Source of the DNA: a virus
Taxonomy: Duplodnaviria > Caudoviricetes
Strand: one strand, 5' to 3'
DNA: 46,904 nucleotides
IMG/VR virus record: IMGVR_UViG_3300037991_001826
Span: 1-46,904 of that record
The first letter of the stretch is position 1, and the number at the start of each line of letters is the position of its first letter. Under the pieces are notes generated by a model. It was not told the DNA's origin. It saw only the letters and a program-made list of their open reading frames with translations, and made no database searches. The position numbers and the translations under genes are program-made. Below are positions 2,457 to 46,222 of the stretch, piece by piece.

Positions 2457-2492
2457 AGATTGTCAATAAACCCAGCTCATTGCTGGGCAACT

Positions 2493-2531
2493 GGACGAGC
2501 TGGAGTTGAACCAACTAAATACCCTGCGTCC
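2493..2531 (-). other. tRNA-like element C (acceptor-like stem + T-arm)
   Basis: Minus strand: GGACG-N10-AGTTGG-TTCAACT-CCAGCT-CGTCC-A, followed by hairpin GCCCAGC-AATGA-GCTGGGT. Confidence 0.6.
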
Positions 2532-4025: not shown

Positions 4026-4060
4026 GTTTTGATTGTTGGCTACTCTCAGTGAGTAGCAAA

Positions 4061-4131
4061 AGCAAAGGGCGGAATCGAACCGCCCAAATCGCCCAAAAGC
4101 CAGGCTATGACTGGATTTATAGCGTTTTGCT
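4061..4131 (-). other. tRNA-like element B
   Basis: Minus strand: AGCAAA-N40-GGGCGG-TTCGATT-CCGCCC-TTTGCT, then hairpin GCTACTC-ACTGA-GAGTAGC and ATG at 4025. Confidence 0.6.
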
Positions 4132-5553: not shown

Positions 5554-5581
5554 TCCCCTGTATTACGTAGGGTACCCCCCT
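5554..5581 (-). repeat. 28-bp repeat copy 1 (candidate phage RNAP promoter or origin)
   Basis: 27/28 identical to 45385-45412. Confidence 0.75.
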
Positions 5582-7313
5582 AGTTCCAGTGAGGGACTGA
5601 GTTTCCGTTAGATAAACCTCTAGCTTGTTGTCTTTGTTCTTTATCCATCCCCAACACCAAATGATTGGTAGCCATTTGGGGATTCTCTATGAACTGTTCG
5701 AGTAGGTCTTGGAACTCTTCGTCTTTCTTCATCTGGATCTGAGCCTTTGCCGAAATAGACAGACTATCTGTGTAGTATTTGACTGCCATAGCTAGACAGT
5801 CGAGTCTGTCGTCATGCTTAACTGCATATTTCATTCGGCACATACGGCTCATTTGGTAGAACAGCATGTATAGAAGCCTTTGTTCCGGTGCTGCGTCTGG
5901 ATTGGATCTATAGTCCCAATCAATAACATCACGGTTAACAACAAGACGATGTTGATTAAGAACAGGTTCAAGAGAGTCAATGATTCTGTCTTCTTTCCTA
6001 ACATTCGCTCTAACTTCATCAATAAATATTCTCTGTTTTGTTTGTTGAATATGTTTTTTAAATAATTCACTAACTATTCCGTCTCCAAAGTTTGTCTCTA
6101 TAACTAACGTGGTTGCGTCGTACTTTTTACAGCCTTTTAATATATCGAGCAGGGTCGCATCTGAATACCCGTCTCTGTAGGCTCGCACCTCATGTAGGTA
6201 TAGAAAGCCGTTCTTCTGGGAGAGGTAGCACGCGGCTGTTTCATCGGAGCCACGGCCCGAGGGATCGACGGCGCAGATGGTTTCTGAGTATGGAGTCCAC
6301 TCTCCCTGTATTTGCATAGGGGAGTAGAAGTAATCTCCAGGCAGCCCAACTGTTGGTAGGTCTTTAAGGATATTTCTTGGATCTGAGCACCATACGATGT
6401 TGTCGGGTGCTTCAGTAGGATTAACGCTGGTAATAATAAGGTCAGACATCTTAAGAGGAAACTTTTCAGCATCACTGAGAGTCGTATCAAGCTGGAACTG
6501 AAGCATGAAGTTGCTTCGTCCCATTGCCGATTCTCTTTCCAGTAAATCCTCGTTATCAAACCGGTCTGGGTCTGTAGGTTGTCCTGCTTCGGCACCATCA
6601 TCTATATCTTCCTGTAATTGTGGGGCTATTAATCCTTCGTAGGGTGTAACGTCTTTTGGATATCTGGAGGGCCAAACAAAGGGGCGATACGCACGCTCTG
6701 CCAACTTACGATAAACAGTAAAAGTAGTCTGAGGAGTCCCGAGATACATAATACGGCTATCGTCTTTCGGGGTAAGGATACTTTCCGCCTCAGTGCAAAG
6801 TTGAAGTAATTTTTCACGCATCAACTCCGTCATGGAGTTTCCTGGCACCTCTATGTCGTCCAGAATCATCAGATCCGCACGACTTCCTGTTAACTGACCA
6901 GTAATACCAACACTCTTCACGGACGGAGCCTGATGAGGAGCGCAGTTTACGTCGAAGGAAATCCTTGACCATCTGCTGTCGTCGCTCTTTGGTTGTAGAT
7001 GACTTAGCCATGGTGTTTCTATGATTAGTTTCTGTAAAAATATGCTCATGTTGTCTGCTCTTTCCTTGGAAGCAGAAATGATCATTATTTTCTTTTCAGC
7101 GTCGTTAAATAGTGTCCATAAGACAAAAGCACCGGTAATCCAGCTCTTACCTACTCCACGAAACGCCTGTATCTGTAATCGCTTAGGACCATTCTGTAAA
7201 TAGTCTGCGATTGCATATTGTGCCCTAGTAGGTGAGGGCAGATCCAGCTGGTTCCACAAAGCTTGTAGAAACAGCTTGAAGTCTGCCTGTAGAGCAACTA
7301 AATGTTCTTCCAT
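5580..7313 (-). CDS. terL: Terminase large subunit (T7 gp19-like)
   Basis: Walker A AFRGVGKS, Walker B LMILDDIE, nuclease VDPSGRG and HDDRLD. Confidence 0.97.
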   Translation of the reverse strand: MEEHLVALQADFKLFLQALWNQLDLPSPTRAQYAIADYLQNGPKRLQIQAFRGVGKSWITGAFVLWTLFNDAEKKIMIISASKERADNMSIFLQKLIIETPWLSHLQPKSDDSRWSRISFDVNCAPHQAPSVKSVGITGQLTGSRADLMILDDIEVPGNSMTELMREKLLQLCTEAESILTPKDDSRIMYLGTPQTTFTVYRKLAERAYRPFVWPSRYPKDVTPYEGLIAPQLQEDIDDGAEAGQPTDPDRFDNEDLLERESAMGRSNFMLQFQLDTTLSDAEKFPLKMSDLIITSVNPTEAPDNIVWCSDPRNILKDLPTVGLPGDYFYSPMQIQGEWTPYSETICAVDPSGRGSDETAACYLSQKNGFLYLHEVRAYRDGYSDATLLDILKGCKKYDATTLVIETNFGDGIVSELFKKHIQQTKQRIFIDEVRANVRKEDRIIDSLEPVLNQHRLVVNRDVIDWDYRSNPDAAPEQRLLYMLFYQMSRMCRMKYAVKHDDRLDCLAMAVKYYTDSLSISAKAQIQMKKDEEFQDLLEQFIENPQMATNHLVLGMDKEQRQQARGLSNGNSVPHWN

Positions 7314-17804: not shown

Positions 17805-20800
17805 TTATAAAAGGTTCTTTGCTTCTTTTTGCAGTCTTATTATTTCTTCTATGTCGCCTCTACGTGTGGCGTCTGTTATCGATCTATTGTAGTACTGTTT
17901 CTTTTCGACTATTCCTCTTTCAGCAATTCTAAGTTCTGCCTGATTCTGAGCATTTCTTAACGCCCTTTTTAGCATTCTATGGATATCTTTAAATTGTTTT
18001 CTATCTAATTCAACTCCATTATTTATAGCTTTTTTGTATTCTTTTCTGAAATTTCTACCCTCTGGAGTATTCATTATTCTCTGAACTTCTTTAGCAAATA
18101 GCTTATCTTTGCCCATAATCTGTGTGACTTGTGAGCGTTGAGCTGGAGAATATTCCACTCCATTACCATTTGTATTTAGTTGAGGTCTTCCATCAAATTC
18201 GACATCAATAAGGAATTGTTTAATAGGTGAAAGATCATCACCACGTTTAAATGCAGGAGAATATGTATTTACTAATCTTTGCCAAAAGTTTTGTGGTTCT
18301 CTAATTAGACCACCATCTACCCAGTCATACGCATTAGGTAAACCTTCTTTTGCAATAGGGTTTCTGTTAGCTAATAACTGTGTAAATTCTTGTTCTACTT
18401 CTTTTAGTTGTGGGGTAAGAAGTCTACCAAGTTCATTTCTAAGTCCACTTCCTGGCACAAAACTACTACCAAAACTAGCAAGCCATCTATTCATAGCTGC
18501 TGGGTTTCCAGCTAACACGTCGTTCATTGGTTCGAGACCAGCTAAGAATGATTTGTTAACTATATTGGCAGCTAAAATGTGACCCATTTTATTTAGATAT
18601 AACTCTAAAGTTGGTGAATCTAACGTATCGAAGTTATCCATCACGTCAGCAGTTAAAGCAATCCAATCACTTATTGCACCAAGACCTTCATAGCTATACC
18701 ATTTACCATCCCAACCTTTATAGGAGCGAGGTTGCCAACCAAGTTGTTGTCTAGTTCTCTGTCTTGTCTTGTCATATAAACCATTACCATGAAGACGATC
18801 AGTACTAAATAATCCAACAGCACCAAATACTGAGATAGTACCTATAGCTTTTCTGCCTTTTAATTCAGCACGAATAGTCTCATAAGCAGCTTCAATATTA
18901 ACGGCATCTACATCAACCTCATTAGCTCTTAATAATCTCTCTACTTCACTACCATCCATTTGTGCGAATGGTTTTCTGAAAGCATTTAATCGATCAATAA
19001 ATAAACCTAATGGGTTATGACTACCAGCAAAGCGCAACATGTTTACAGCTGTTCGTGGAAACATGAGAAATGGTTTAAATACTGGTGCATAAGTAAGCAA
19101 ACTATTGATGCCATCTACCCCAGGATTATCTAGGTTCATAGCTATTTCTCTACTTGCGTACTCCACACCCTTATCGGTAATCATCCCGTTCTCATCGAAC
19201 ATCTCCTTATATATTTTGTCGCTTGCTTCTTTTAAACTTTTATCTGTAATTTTCGTGCTTTTATCAAATAATGCATCATATGCTCTACCTCGAGCTTCAA
19301 CACTAGCAATAAAGGATCTGGTAAATCCGTCAAACGCTGTCATAGAGTTTGCACCAAATCTCAACCAAGGATGCTCTGCAAGATCATTCATCGCTTTGAC
19401 TCTTTCCATCATTGCTGCTGGACCTTCTAAACCTTCAGCAGATTTAGCGTCAGCAAAAGCTTGTAATGATTCCAAAGTTTTTTGATTTTTAATTTGGAAA
19501 TCTTTACGCATCACATACTCAACAGAACTAGGATCTCTAGACGCTTGTCTAAAAACTATGTTCATATGTTTAGTAGCTTGCTGCAAAGTATCAACCATAC
19601 CAACCGTGTACATATAACTTGCTCTTCTTATGGTTGCAATATCACCTTGTAATAAAGCTCCAGCCATAGTAGATATAGGTCTTTCAATCATTAATGCCAA
19701 GTTTGACATTGCAGCTTTAAGAGGTGTACCGATAGCAGATAGAACTGAGTTATAAATATTAGCCCATGCTCCCTGTACCACAACAGAAGGCATATCAGGA
19801 TTTAAATCTATTAAGGCTTTTCTAAATACTCCTGTTGATTCTTTAAAGTATCTATTTAGCTTTGCAATGGTATTTACATTTCCATCAGTAGTTTCATAAG
19901 CCAACATTAGTGGTTTTAACATTGATGGCTTTTCCGCGTTTAGCATGCGGATTAGATCAATAGCTTCTTTTGACTCAATAGTGATTTTCCTTAAACTTTC
20001 TATTGTTTCTTGTTTCTGCTCTTTTACATAATTAAAAGCATTATTTAAGATATTTTTCTTTCCGCCTTTATTTCTAAAATCTAGTGTTTTTATTCGATTA
20101 AATATATTGGTCATATTCAAAGCTCTACCTCTTGCATAAGAAGTTTGCGCTTTAATATTCATTAAATATTGAAGTCTATCTAGGATCTGTTCTTGCGCTC
20201 TTTGTACAGCTTGGGGTGCATCTTCCATAAGTCTTGCACCTTCTGCTAAATCAGAAACTTGTCCAGCTAAAGATGTACTCATATATGCTTGAGCACGTGC
20301 TAAGTCCATATTCATATAGTCATCAAAGTATTTCTTTATTGCATTAAATACTCCGACATATCCTTCTGAGCTAAGAACTTTAATACCTGTATCAGCGTCG
20401 GTACCAGTTAAGAAAGTATCAATAACTTTCTTCATTTCTGGTACATCCATTTCGTATAAAGCTGCGGCTAGATCTTCTCCTACTTCTACAACCTCTTTAT
20501 GTGTAATTACCTTTCCAGTTTGACCATGCCATTCAACATCTAATTGCAAATCTTTAGATAATTGACGCATAGTATCAAATCCTCCATCATCAAGGTTTAA
20601 ACCTTTTCTTAATGCAGAATCAGTAAATACACTTCCAACTCTTCCTTGGACACTATCTATATTTTTAGTAATACGTACAGCGTCAACTGATGCTGAAACT
20701 ATATCTGCATCCTGAGTTCTAAAACCAACTTCATAATCATCGTAGAGTTTATGTACTCCTTTTATTGGTTTATCTAGATCTATATCTTCAGTAATTTCTA

Positions 20801-28784: not shown

Positions 28785-28809
28785 AAAAAAAAAGGGAGCC
28801 GAAGCTCCC
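28785..28809 (-). terminator. T-phi-like terminator after the capsid gene
   Basis: GGGAGC-TTCG-GCTCCC followed by 9 T. Confidence 0.9.
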
Positions 28810-28824
28810 GATAAAATGAATAAA

Positions 28825-29949
28825 TTAGAATGCAGAAGGAGCTGTAGCACCAACATATAATTCTACTGCGGCAGCAGGATTTAAGTAATCCGCCCCCATA
28901 GCTAGACGTCCCAGAATGACATCACCTTGGTATACCACGGATATGTCTCCGCTTGTTACCTGTACTTGAGGACCAATAGCCTCAACTACACCAGCAGCTT
29001 CCTTCTGGAAGATTAATCCACAAGACTTAGCTCCTACTTCAGCAGTAGTACCGTAGTCATTGTTGATTCCTGTTGATGCACCTGATGCGTTCTCAAGTGT
29101 GTTACCAATTCTGTCGCCCATGTTAGATGGTGAAGTCTTACCTGTAGTTCCGCCAAATGCAGTACCATATTTGCCTAAGAAAGGAATATTCATAGACTTA
29201 TAAATGTGGATACCAGCGATCTCTACAACTCCATTACCACCTTGTAGTGCAGTACCTTGCACGTCTCTATTAACAAGACCATTATTACCAATATCAGTTA
29301 TGAGGGAATAATATTGTCTTGGGTTGAGGACCGCGCATCTACCTTGGGAACTCACTCCTTTTTCGTCTAGAGCAGCAGCTGCATCATAGAATGCATTTAC
29401 TAGGTTGCTCGCAACGTAAGCGTCAGAATCATTAGTTGTAGAACCAACTCTGATCTGTGTTCCGCCAGGTTCTTTGAAGTTATTCTTTGTGATTGGAGAA
29501 GCACTTCTAGCTCCTCTTGTGATTGCTCTAAAGATTAGGCGATCATACTTCTCTGCAAGAGCGTAACCGATCTTACGAGAGATCTCTCCTCTCAACTCGA
29601 AGTGCGCTAGTGTTTCATCTAGCTCATACACGAAGGCACTTGAAATTAATAGGTCGTCAACAGTTATAGTTTTTTCTGCGACTGGAGGTGCGCCGTCACT
29701 GTTACCTAAGATTGAATTTCCAGGGGTATGGAACTCAGCAGTTGTACTACCGGTGTAGATGAACTGAAGACTCTTACCGTTCTTCAATGTTCTCTTCATA
29801 ACCAAGTCACGAGCGATTGCTTCGTGCTGGAAACCCTTAAACATCTCGCCTGAGAACAGACGAAGGTAAAGTGCTCTAGCGTCACCTGTTGAGTTTGACT
29901 GACCTTGACGTGTAAGTGAGGTAGTCAAATCTGATGACTGATGAGCCAT
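28825..29949 (-). CDS. Major capsid protein (gp10)
   Basis: ALYLRLFSGE...RTLKNGKSLQF, TITVDDLL. Confidence 0.96.
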   Translation of the reverse strand: MAHQSSDLTTSLTRQGQSNSTGDARALYLRLFSGEMFKGFQHEAIARDLVMKRTLKNGKSLQFIYTGSTTAEFHTPGNSILGNSDGAPPVAEKTITVDDLLISSAFVYELDETLAHFELRGEISRKIGYALAEKYDRLIFRAITRGARSASPITKNNFKEPGGTQIRVGSTTNDSDAYVASNLVNAFYDAAAALDEKGVSSQGRCAVLNPRQYYSLITDIGNNGLVNRDVQGTALQGGNGVVEIAGIHIYKSMNIPFLGKYGTAFGGTTGKTSPSNMGDRIGNTLENASGASTGINNDYGTTAEVGAKSCGLIFQKEAAGVVEAIGPQVQVTSGDISVVYQGDVILGRLAMGADYLNPAAAVELYVGATAPSAF

Positions 29950-30092
29950 GATATTTGCTTAAAATGTAAAGGTATATTTGCTTGTCTCTTCGATCGAAAA
30001 GTTGTGAGTCTTAATTGGACTCGTTTATATTGTGGTCTATCCCACCGTCTAGACGGCTGATGAGTATCCGCGTACGGGTCAAAAGCCAAATT

Positions 30093-30137
30093 GAATAGGG
30101 AGGACTTGCACCTCCCAGATCGCTTAACCGATTATTC
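30093..30137 (-). other. tRNA-like element D
   Basis: Minus strand: GAATA-(ATCG GTTAAG CGAT CT)-GGGAGG-TGCAAGT-CCTCCC-TATTC. Confidence 0.55.
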
Positions 30138-30180
30138 TTGTGTAAGCAACGCCACGATATACGAAAGTAACTTTCTTCAT
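30124..30180 (-). CDS. 18-aa YRG peptide (DUF4278-like), MKKVTFVYRGVAYTRIIG
   Basis: GGAG 6 nt before ATG; YRGVxY motif; directly follows the riboswitch. Confidence 0.8.
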   Translation of the reverse strand: MKKVTFVYRGVAYTRIIG

Positions 30181-30195
30181 GGTTATCTCCATATA

Positions 30196-30247
30196 CCTAA
30201 GCCCCGTTCCATGCTTAGGAGTCATGCGTCCCCGAGGGGATGAACGG
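30196..30247 (-). ncRNA. Glutamine-II riboswitch (Downstream-peptide motif)
   Basis: CCGUUCA-UCCCC UCG GGGA-CGCA...CCUAAGC-AU-GGAACGG-G-GCUUAGG: P1, P2 and pseudoknot pairings are present, and a YRG peptide follows. Confidence 0.8.
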
Positions 30248-30253
30248 ACGTGG

Positions 30254-30736
30254 CTAAAAATAATTCACATTACATATAACTCTTCGGTGTGCATCGCTAG
30301 TAGTCGTACTATGATGCAACTTTGATGGGTCATGTATTAGTACACGATTTGCTACCGAAGAAACTTTTTCTCCTTCGCAATACGTATAACCATCACAAGT
30401 GTTTAAATATAAAATCGCACCCTTATGTGAATAATGAAAATCAACATGATCTTCATGGATTTTTAATTTAGGAGTGTAAGGATACATATTAAGAATCACT
30501 CTTATCAGTGATTTCATGCCAAGGTTTTTCAGTAGAGGAGCAACTACTTCAATTACATTTGAAATTGGTACGTGATTTTCATAAGCCAAATGACTGTGCA
30601 TGTAATTATCAAGTGCGTGTTTATCAGTTACGTCTGCAACTGAAGGTATGAAATACCAAGGCATATCAGAACTCATTATGTACTTACTAAGTCCTTCAAA
30701 TATTTCGGGCGGTAAAAAATTATCTATGACTCGCAT
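30254..30736 (-). CDS. 2OG-Fe(II) oxygenase
   Basis: HVD...AILYLNTCDGYT...HHST...RRVICNVNY. Confidence 0.8.
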   Translation of the reverse strand: MRVIDNFLPPEIFEGLSKYIMSSDMPWYFIPSVADVTDKHALDNYMHSHLAYENHVPISNVIEVVAPLLKNLGMKSLIRVILNMYPYTPKLKIHEDHVDFHYSHKGAILYLNTCDGYTYCEGEKVSSVANRVLIHDPSKLHHSTTTSDAHRRVICNVNYF

Positions 30737-43880: not shown

Positions 43881-46222
43881 TAACAGAAAAAATAAGTGGA
43901 ATCAATTACTTCGGACGGTTCAAGGTCTCCAATAATCGGTGGTTCAGACTCAGCTCCAATAGCTTGGGCAAAGTCACGTAGGTAGTCATGCTCTGCGAAT
44001 AGATGCATGTATGTATTTCTTACAAGAGTGGAGAGATGGGTCATATCAGTTGCCCTACATAGAACGGAATCATGTATCAAAGCAATTGGTGCATGAAACT
44101 GTATGGCACTGAGTGCTAATAGACTCCCATCCATGGAATGAATCAGGTTTGGTGCTGTGGCGTTCCTGTGATGTCGTATGTCGACACCATCTTCACCGTC
44201 AGCTACCTTGATTTGTACTCGACCCAGTAACTTCAGCTCTATCGTTTTACGATTAGATTTCATCAATCGCTGGGTAACTTCAAATCCTGATGGGGTAGTC
44301 CAAGATATCTCTTCAGCTCCCTTTCTTATGGCGTTTGCAACTTCAGTTTCTATCCATCGCATTGCCCTCATAGGCCCTGGCAGCACTAGCTCCATGGCTT
44401 CTCGGACAGCTTTGACCATCTGGGTCAGCTCATCCTTCTCGACCTCGATACCGACATCCTTGAAAGAATCTCTTATGTACTGCCTGTTGCTAAAAGGTTT
44501 AGCATTGTAGGGTATTGTCATAATTGTTCTTTTCACCCGACTCCTATCCCAGTGAGGGCGTAGTCTTTCGGGTATCTGATGTCTGCATTTATCAGCTATA
44601 ACCTGATAGGCATCTTGAGGTTTATCACTAGGTAAAACATTTACTAAAGATGCTGCTGATTTATCACGGCACAATCCAGCAAGTATCTGTATTCCTGAGC
44701 AAGTCGCGTCAGTTGCTACACATAGACCTGTGGTCGTCCTTGATTTGGCAATGACTACAGCGTAGTATTCCTCGCATGCAGCCAAAAATTGCCATGGTTC
44801 GTCAGCAGTTTCCCAGTCTCCAATTGAATTTATTGGATCAGTAGCTACTCTAATAATTCTTTGTATATTCTCCTCTTCTTCTACCCAAGCCAGTCGCTCA
44901 CAAATGGTAGCTTTATCCAGTCCAAACGTAGTGGCTACCTGGAATTTCAGCCATTGCTCACCTTCTTCAGTGATAGGTGCCTCGTCAGCAAATCTAACTA
45001 GGCTCTTCCCGAAGTCAGTGTCCTGACAAGTTAAGAATGAGGGTATGGGATATACTCTTCCCCGATAATCAAACGACATGGGCACGTAGTAGTCGATTCC
45101 TTTGAACTGCTTGACACAGTTCATAGTCATTCTTGTTCTACAACTAGCTCGAAATTCATTTTTATTTTTATTATGAAAAACGGCTTTTTTCTTTCGCCAT
45201 TCCTTTCGTGCTTGCTCATTCGTATCAATATCAAACGGCTTCGGAGGTTCGGGATGATGGATGATTGGTCGGAACTTTCCAACCTCTATTCCTCTCTCCT
45301 CTAGTACCTCTGCAACCTCTACAGTAAAGTCATTTAATCTATATTTAACTTTCTGTATCAGGTTCAAAAATTCATAGATTTTTCTCCCCTGTATAACGTA
45401 GGGTACCCCCCTCCGAACCATCTCATGGCAATTGATTAGCTCGTTTAAATAGTAACCGCCATCTGCAAACTCATGCCAATCTCTAGGAGGAATTAACATC
45501 GGTAAAGATTGAGGAGAAAATAACTCAGTTATTCGTTTAATTTCCTCTGCATGTATTAAGAATGATTCGGTTGGAACTATTATCCAAGTTTGTCTTTTGC
45601 CTTCTATTTTTTTACTTTTATCGAACCAGCCAGAGGATCTACAGAAACAATCAAGGAACCAAGTTCCGATCTGTATCTTATGATTTTGTCCCCATGCTTT
45701 CCATTGCTCGACCTCACTCTTGTTCATCAGGGTCTGCATTGACTTGCGTTTGTAGTCAGTGCCCTTGGCTTGATGCCAGTAATTCTTTTTAAGAACGGCG
45801 AACAATCCTGGCGCAACCCTTTCGTAGTAACGCATCTGGGACTCTGCCTCCAATGCAGTGCCAACAGCTAGAGCTATGTTGGTCAGCTGATCACTCTTTT
45901 TCTTGGGTGAGAATACTTTGTCAAATGTAAGCTTGGCTGTGATTGCAGCCTGTGATTCAGTATCGATGTCAAATATGAAAGGGAGTAGCTCGATAAGATG
46001 TCCAGCTCCTCCCGTTGCAATTTTCTTTCTTTTTTCCTTTTTTTCATTTATTTCTTTAATAAAATATGGCAGCAGTGAGTCAATTGATGACGAGCCAAAA
46101 ACTGTGGCTGATGCATAATCCTTTTCTATCAACTTTTTAGTATCAGATCGAATCTTTTCTAGTCCACCTCGTATTTGCTTTCGCTCGAACTCCTGCTGTC
46201 TTTCCAGATCAGCTGCTTGCAT
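43880..46222 (-). CDS. Single-subunit T7-like RNA polymerase
   Basis: DYRGRVY, DATCSG, KRTIMTIPY, PNLIHSMD, IHDS, YFFC terminus. Confidence 0.98.
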   Translation of the reverse strand: MQAADLERQQEFERKQIRGGLEKIRSDTKKLIEKDYASATVFGSSSIDSLLPYFIKEINEKKEKRKKIATGGAGHLIELLPFIFDIDTESQAAITAKLTFDKVFSPKKKSDQLTNIALAVGTALEAESQMRYYERVAPGLFAVLKKNYWHQAKGTDYKRKSMQTLMNKSEVEQWKAWGQNHKIQIGTWFLDCFCRSSGWFDKSKKIEGKRQTWIIVPTESFLIHAEEIKRITELFSPQSLPMLIPPRDWHEFADGGYYLNELINCHEMVRRGVPYVIQGRKIYEFLNLIQKVKYRLNDFTVEVAEVLEERGIEVGKFRPIIHHPEPPKPFDIDTNEQARKEWRKKKAVFHNKNKNEFRASCRTRMTMNCVKQFKGIDYYVPMSFDYRGRVYPIPSFLTCQDTDFGKSLVRFADEAPITEEGEQWLKFQVATTFGLDKATICERLAWVEEEENIQRIIRVATDPINSIGDWETADEPWQFLAACEEYYAVVIAKSRTTTGLCVATDATCSGIQILAGLCRDKSAASLVNVLPSDKPQDAYQVIADKCRHQIPERLRPHWDRSRVKRTIMTIPYNAKPFSNRQYIRDSFKDVGIEVEKDELTQMVKAVREAMELVLPGPMRAMRWIETEVANAIRKGAEEISWTTPSGFEVTQRLMKSNRKTIELKLLGRVQIKVADGEDGVDIRHHRNATAPNLIHSMDGSLLALSAIQFHAPIALIHDSVLCRATDMTHLSTLVRNTYMHLFAEHDYLRDFAQAIGAESEPPIIGDLEPSEVIDSTYFFC
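45385..45412 (-). repeat. 28-bp repeat copy 2, inside the RNAP gene
   Basis: 27/28 identical to 5554-5581. Confidence 0.75.

Follow-up and report, generated by a model that had tools for sequence, protein, structure and literature searches.

The tRNA-like element ahead of the major capsid gene of this phage (element D, 30091..30137; all features of the window given here are on the minus strand) probably acts as a t-element-like RNase Z signal. Its cleavage, which we infer from the geometry of the element, would release a 5ʹ-protected capsid mRNA from a transcript of about 15 kb, while the glutamine riboswitch next to it would control a short peptide only. Two separable modules would thus abut: a Glutamine-II switch for an 18-aa peptide, and the tRNA-shaped D as a cut site. 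The initial annotation had instead joined switch, peptide and D into one device for nitrogen gating of virion production.

The window, that is the whole stretch of 46,904 nt that was analysed, belongs to a P-SSP7-like T7-like cyanopodovirus (99% complete), a marine cyanobacterial virus; T7-like cyanophages are abundant viruses of the ocean. The genes on the minus strand run in the order portal, scaffold, hli, psbA, two small genes, leader and capsid. The major capsid protein gene (28825..29949) was identified by PF21703 (E 2.5e-70) and 81% identity to P-SSP7 gp10, and a terminator scan placed a terminator-like hairpin with a T run on its 3ʹ side (28794..28809). When the capsid leader was used as a query, 37 phage records matched, 32 of which are named Synechococcus, Prochlorococcus or cyanophage. 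P-SSP7 matched with 86% identity across 62% of the query, and several phage records showed a second match. The DNA polymerase appears to be split into an exonuclease ORF and a polymerase ORF, as in the annotation of P-SSP7 and S-TIP37, with a methyltransferase-like ORF lying between the two (41360-40830, 40842-40000 and 40025-38754, judged by eye).

The riboswitch ahead of the peptide was confirmed with Rfam. RF01704 (Glutamine-II, Downstream-peptide) matched 30249-30196 at 46.7 bits, where the gathering score is 33 (E 2.4e-8), and this was the sole Rfam match within the window. In the aptamer (30196..30249, with C1 at 30246), the ligand-site and pseudoknot bases C1-A6, C17-G18-C19, A33 and G35-G42 are all present, by comparison with the crystal structure (PMC6698751). 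The short ORF that marks Glutamine-II follows, its ATG 23 nt 3ʹ of the pseudoknot strand. In picocyanobacteria the class is described as an ON switch acting on DUF4278 peptides (PMC6212724; PMC2864571), and glutamine riboswitches of marine phages are already in print (PMC9004378). Rfam also found the riboswitch in P-SSP7 and S-TIP37. At 20522-20650 of P-SSP7 the riboswitch and a 17-aa YRG ORF stand without annotation in the record, and the peptide of S-TIP37 is annotated as hypothetical gp32.

The riboswitch with its peptide is a new copy of a known kind. It resembles the RF01704 / Yfr6 leader with DUF4278 peptides in passing the Rfam cut-off, in its ligand-site bases and in the short YRG ORF next to it. 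It differs from host Glutamine-II copies in sitting in a psbA-capsid island and in having an 18-aa peptide with a single motif. Covariation between the 5ʹ flank and the ribosome-binding site (RBS) was seen in phage leaders and was absent in host leaders, and the host copies are without D.

The RBS of the peptide is GGAG (30187..30190), which is present in 66 of 107 phage leaders. The CUCC at 30221-30218, at the linker and the 5ʹ strand of P2, had been pointed out as complementary to it. The complementarity is there in the sequence, but an anti-RBS role for it did not survive: among 107 distinct phage leaders, 6 carry CUCC, all sharing one identical P2 strand, its pairing probability was 0.0, and forcing the pairing cost 9.3 kcal/mol. 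The CUCC-bearing strand showed no covariation with the RBS in 39 dereplicated phage leaders (p 0.75). A likely anti-RBS of the OFF state, judged from covariation in phage leaders, is the 5ʹ flank together with the first aptamer bases (30242..30254). In 39 dereplicated phage leaders, the flank-RBS duplex averaged -6.6 kcal/mol within a leader vs -5.0 kcal/mol across leaders, with a permutation p of 0.0002 that relatedness among leaders can inflate, and helices of 8-11 bp with unrelated sequences were found in several lineages. When glutamine is absent, the flank with C1-G2-U3 would pair with the RBS, and ligand binding would free the RBS.

In this genome the flank-RBS helix has just 5 bp (-4.7 kcal/mol, vs -6.0 kcal/mol for the isolated CUCC-linker duplex), the RBS of the folded leader was paired mainly with the peptide's own codons (0.85), and the flank-RBS signal was absent in 11 host leaders (p 0.57). 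The expression platform of this particular copy is therefore a predicted one. Although the riboswitch class is known, a 5ʹ-flank expression platform and the frequency of the switch in these phages are useful additions. The riboswitch 5ʹ flank (30254-30249) can also pair with the Arg-Gly codons of YRG (30156-30151). For the Arg of YRG, 104 of 111 phage motifs use CGY, vs AGA in 29 of 38 host motifs.

The peptide ORF (30124..30180) reads MKKVTFVYRGVAYTRIIG, exactly as first reported, and carries a single YRGxxY motif. This motif was invariant in 110/110 phage peptides, with the codon changes being synonymous. The description of the peptide as DUF4278-type was right in that YRGxxY is common with host peptides, but the peptide falls below the Pfam cut-off. 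Pfam DUF4278 (PF14105, cut-off 25.3 bits) did not match the window ORF, compared as its 22- and 33-aa extensions. None of nine phage peptides passed (five were sub-threshold), and all four host controls did. With a profile made from 56 short phage peptides, 19 of 20 host peptides scored 11-25.6 bits vs a shuffled maximum of 7.6. By its sequence the peptide is DUF4278-like and no formal member of the family. It is conceivable, though doubtful, that the peptide inhibits host glutamine synthetase in the manner of IF17 and is produced at high glutamine; such a role was proposed for the host copies (PMC6212724), and the shared YRGxxY motif, which put 19 of the 20 host peptides above all shuffles, would fit it. 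The same source states, however, that even host copies are without the IF17 C-terminus needed for binding glutamine synthetase, and the phage peptide is one motif of 18 aa that does not reach the Pfam cut-off. This role would be compatible with D as a cut site.

D consists of a 5-bp acceptor-like stem (30137-30133 / 30097-30093), an inner hairpin, a 6-bp T stem and a 7-nt T loop (30110-30104). Codons 15-18 of the peptide and its stop (30126-30124) form the 5ʹ acceptor strand (30137-30133) and the inner hairpin, so the overlap that had been noticed earlier is correct. That the tRNA-like element itself is real was borne out by comparison: in 36 distinct sequences the T stem was 100% paired, and 0 of 500 shuffles reached the observed covariation score. 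The acceptor-like stem had at least five Watson-Crick pairs in 35 of 39 distinct copies (mean 4.97 vs 3.25 shuffled). Twenty different acceptor 3ʹ strands were available, and at least five Watson-Crick pairs were found for 80% of them in their own upstream sequence but for 11% in those of others. The acceptor helix was 57.9% paired in the raw MAFFT alignment, where its 5ʹ strands are misaligned, and its pairs had a probability of 0.24 in the full untranslated leader vs 0.72 for D plus E alone (E is the hairpin domain that follows D).

D is a real mimic of an acceptor stem plus T arm, with an acceptor/T-arm helix of 11-12 bp, a T loop and a variable linker. An acceptor-like stem stacked on a T arm over 11-12 bp, with a T loop, is what is expected of a t-element, and the 3ʹ geometry of D is the geometry that RNase Z reads. 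From this geometry the RNase Z cut is predicted at 30092-30090. A true tRNA was rejected, as ARAGORN found 0 genes in the window, Rfam gave no tRNA match, and there is no anticodon arm.

The slot that D occupies, just 5ʹ of E, was surveyed in capsid-anchored loci, 80 from a search plus cultured phages; 9 of 91 loci were left unclassified by the script, among them P60, which was read separately. The slot holds D (type A), another hairpin (type B), or a true tRNA-Gly (NATL1A-7). These elements end 2-4 nt before the conserved E. The distance from the end of the T loop to E is 15-17 nt in type A, 15 nt in the tRNA-Gly of NATL1A-7 and 17-18 nt in type B, bar two mis-called loci. The 3ʹ boundary is thus fixed relative to the downstream mRNA, which is also expected of a t-element. 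The type B helix has 11-12 bp in 16 of 24 cases. Type B, seen in L006, L019, L084, L085 and others, replaces D before E and has a nearly invariant internal loop and an 8-nt loop; it was also found in Syn5-like phages (10/40). One Syn5-like locus (L355) was scanned over 400 nt and lacked any slot element, and in another locus (L065) an ORF lies between the D-like element and the capsid gene and no E was scored.

Element E (30032..30087) is a covarying hairpin domain that starts 3 nt after D and is predicted to be the 5ʹ guard of the capsid mRNA. Two-sided change was observed in 8 of its 13 predicted pairs (24 sequences), and a conserved 3ʹ motif follows the hairpin domain before the capsid gene of P-SSP7-like phages. 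Neither D nor E had a match in Rfam, including manA, wcaG and PhotoRC-II, even at E up to 10. An HDV-like/theta ribozyme was rejected for E on inspection by eye: the length of the hairpin within P1 is not constant, and there is no P1.1 GG. E was also rejected as a phage promoter, since the predicted promoter lies elsewhere.

The same cassette, a T arm followed by 12 nt, one base, 0-3 nt and a stable hairpin, recurs away from the capsid gene. We examined three copies in this genome, four in P-SSP7 and three in S-TIP37; seven of the ten are in the early region, and in all ten the stable hairpin begins 0-3 nt after position 73. A descriptor gave 3/2/4 sense matches in the three genomes against 0/0/1 antisense and at most 0.05 in shuffled sequences. 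Within the window, the second cassette with its hairpin stands before an early gene at 4039..4131 (T loop at 4079; model R1, E 0.031), and the third, also before an early gene, at 2470..2531 (T loop at 2510) was found by the descriptor scan and missed by model R1. The 4079 copy and P-SSP7 1027 are followed by identical guard hairpins. Model R1 gave no match in four host genomes, tRNAs included, a scan made without a positive control and not counted here. D precedes the capsid gene in Syn5, P60 and S-CBP2 as well, and Syn5 has no Rfam riboswitch, yet D is present. Early genes have D in front of them, and so does the capsid gene of relatives that have no switch, which points to a likely RNase Z site rather than to a tie with nitrogen.

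A cut site before the capsid gene bears on how this gene is transcribed. A 28-nt repeat, predicted to be the promoter of the phage RNA polymerase, lies inside the RNA polymerase gene (45385..45412), about 15.5 kb upstream of the capsid gene, with a second copy at 5554..5581. Equivalents of the repeat are at 6855 and 43822 in P-SSP7 and at 5908 and 44474 in S-TIP37. Just two phage promoters were reported for Syn5 (PMC3950665), one within the gene for the RNA polymerase, the other after the terminase gene, and the repeat stands at the same two places (offset 810 vs 809). We consider it likely, from sequence and position, that the repeat is the phage promoter. No third copy was found in the genome at up to 4 mismatches of 18, and no same-strand sigma-70-like site was found between psbA and the capsid gene. 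With the promoter inside the RNA polymerase gene and no third copy, the capsid gene would be about 15.5 kb from its promoter. The leader may nevertheless have a host-type or unrecognised late promoter. The late class of P-SSP7 begins at the capsid gene (PMC7885011, citing Lindell 2007). Four of 20 RNA runs were compared, all of them consisting of contigs; one (X1) spans the leader with a single flat contig, which may be DNA, and the runs are uninformative on ends or levels. The capsid ATG at 29949 is 175 nt after the peptide stop, in agreement with the distance given earlier.

The mechanism we propose is as follows. The capsid gene would be transcribed from the promoter inside the RNA polymerase gene, about 15 kb upstream. 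Host RNase Z would cut after the discriminator-like base of D, and E would shield the new monophosphate 5ʹ end from RNase J/E; the D cut, the E guard and the terminator (28809-28794) together would make the capsid message stable. Among the nucleases of cyanobacteria are RNase Z, P and E and the 5ʹ-3ʹ nuclease RNase J (PMC10989914). The overlap of the peptide stop with D would be tight packing and a physical interlock. Were RNase P to cut at 30137, the peptide mRNA would lose its stop; any effect of processing on the peptide would thus be to limit it. The two phage promoters reported for Syn5 raise the question of how hundreds of capsid subunits come from a 15-kb transcript, and a tRNA-mimic cut site with a guard hairpin, if true, would be a simple answer. 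The model predicts exact 5ʹ ends at the copies with T loops at 20661, 2586, 1027 and 630 in P-SSP7 and at 20541, 1468 and 651 in S-TIP37.

In the nitrogen gating put forward by the initial annotation, glutamine would induce translation of the peptide, ribosomes ending in D would melt the acceptor stem, and processing and capsid output would shift. In P-SSP7-like phages the peptide and D are strongly linked. We scored 70 loci, after 12 further loci were dropped as too short, and the peptide stood immediately upstream of the element in 40 of the 45 type-A loci vs 3 of 24 type-B loci. Riboswitch and peptide were both adjacent in 38 of the 45, with the peptide alone in two more, so the stop-codon overlap with D is kept in relatives. 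In the 38 type-A loci with a recognised riboswitch the stop lies 16-26 nt before the T loop, and the linkage persists although peptide ends and D sequences differ. The state of D with the peptide is spread over many lineages of the capsid tree, with at least eight forced changes on a quick tree, and an ON switch would suit the proposal (PMC6212724). When 75 viral loci were anchored on the riboswitch (5 of 80 were dropped), type A was adjacent in 28 and type B in 7, the element was further down in 25, and there was none in the available DNA in 15.

The two modules are, however, also found apart, which weakens the claim: 40 of these 75 viral cassettes have no adjacent element, and in Syn5-like phages 15 D copies were scored by script, 12 of them with no riboswitch or YRG upstream (10 of 50 loci were dropped from this set and 15 of 40 were unscored, 8 of which show a T arm by eye). 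D also stands before early genes, and a 400-nt scan of 20 picocyanobacterial host loci, picked by name among the first 80 of 120 matches, gave no D, B or E. In the nearest capsid relative (L006, 94%) both the cassette and E are retained, but the element is type B and the stop is outside the stem. Six type-A copies lack an adjacent peptide, and in five of them D is overlapped by the stop of another gene, such as psbA or scaffold. Since stops of unrelated genes overlap D too, the overlap is a property of the slot, and this property would itself cause the peptide and D to occur together. When the peptide ORF was forced into a single-stranded state in silico, the accessibility of the capsid start region moved just from 0.62 to 0.67, and the CUCC is not conserved. 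At 415 subunits per capsid, the capsid protein corresponds to about 2.0e5 N atoms vs 3.5e5 in the genome. Gating of capsid output by nitrogen is possible but unlikely, and secondary to the cut-site reading. We think it similarly improbable that both readings hold together, so that T7-like cyanophages punctuate transcripts with RNase Z-cut tRNA mimics and, in P-SSP7-like lineages, the glutamine riboswitch gates the capsid cut via ribosomes terminating inside the mimic. If true, it would be a metabolite-controlled mRNA-processing switch for virion production.

Two other roles for D can be weighed against an RNase Z site. D might terminate the middle (psbA) transcript or stabilise its 3ʹ end, with the capsid transcript starting in or near E. 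The terminator scan flagged the T arm as terminator-like, with an interrupted T tail, and the boundary between middle and late genes of P-SSP7 falls here (PMC7885011). We find this unlikely, because the U tract is weak, because neither the conserved T loop nor the acceptor covariation nor replacement by a true tRNA is needed for termination, and because the leader has no predicted phage promoter copy and no same-strand sigma-70-like site was found from psbA to the capsid gene. It also seems unlikely to us that RNase P and RNase Z excise D to give a small RNA, tRNA-like and with a function of its own, such as that of a decoy for host proteins which bind or cleave tRNAs. Excision would suit the acceptor-like stem and the T loop, and phage RNAs are known as RNase P substrates (PMC11143913), but D varies freely in sequence, the slot takes three different structures and the 3ʹ boundary alone is fixed; excision would also truncate the scaffold mRNA in P60 and S-CBP2.

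D as a cut site has its closest parallels outside phages. In plant mitochondria, tRNAs, t-elements and acceptor-stem-like hairpins serve as interchangeable RNase Z signals for mRNA 5ʹ ends (PMC6801519). As with these RNase Z/P signals and with haloarchaeal t-elements (PMC6546412), three interchangeable shapes stand just before a predicted mRNA 5ʹ end here, and in plant mitochondria, too, a tRNA overlaps the last codons of an ORF (ccmC; PMC6801519). The present case differs in being a bacteriophage, in having a downstream guard hairpin and in that the cleavage is predicted. If true, the organellar t-element strategy would extend to phages. The C4 RNA of P1/P7 and M3 RNA (PMC11143913) are likewise phage RNAs shaped for a host tRNA-processing enzyme, but those are mature small RNAs, whereas the fixed boundary of D is 3ʹ and faces the mRNA. 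The manA, wcaG and PhotoRC-II motifs (PMC2864571) are also structured cis-elements in cyanophages, and D and E have no Rfam match to them.

In T7, host RNase III sites process early transcripts. Signals for a host nuclease would thus punctuate early transcripts of a T7-like genome in both cases. The T7 sites are long double-stranded hairpins, while T-arm/acceptor geometry is used here, and here one copy stands before the capsid gene and two phage promoters are predicted.

In the literature covered, which was by title and abstract opening and included few subscription papers, there was no description of D, B or E, nor any phage description of a t-element-like RNase Z signal such as D. PMC10690425 mentions five candidate RNAs that lie upstream of a major capsid family, and these may include E or D. 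The accessible part of the supplements of PMC2864571 gave no P-SSP7 or capsid match, and its peptide note did not surface there. PMC11143913 supports phage RNase P substrates; the accessible parts of PMC12379486, PMC12695635 and PMC2518516 add no support.

The capsid leader also contains two loop-less palindromes, recognised by their self-complementarity. The first (30044..30057) is within E, and the second (29986..30001) is centred 44 nt before the capsid ATG. The second was present in 61 of 66 distinct leaders vs 4.6 in shuffles (maximum 11). Among its 34 versions, 9 central tetramers were seen, and interior G-U pairs outnumbered A-C by 23 to 1, which points to the transcribed strand. For the palindrome of this genome, a dimer was predicted at -23.4 kcal/mol vs -4.3 kcal/mol for the hairpin. 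Self-complementarity that is kept while the palindromes vary suggests RNA dimerisation, and after its release the capsid leader may self-pair in trans via the two palindromes.
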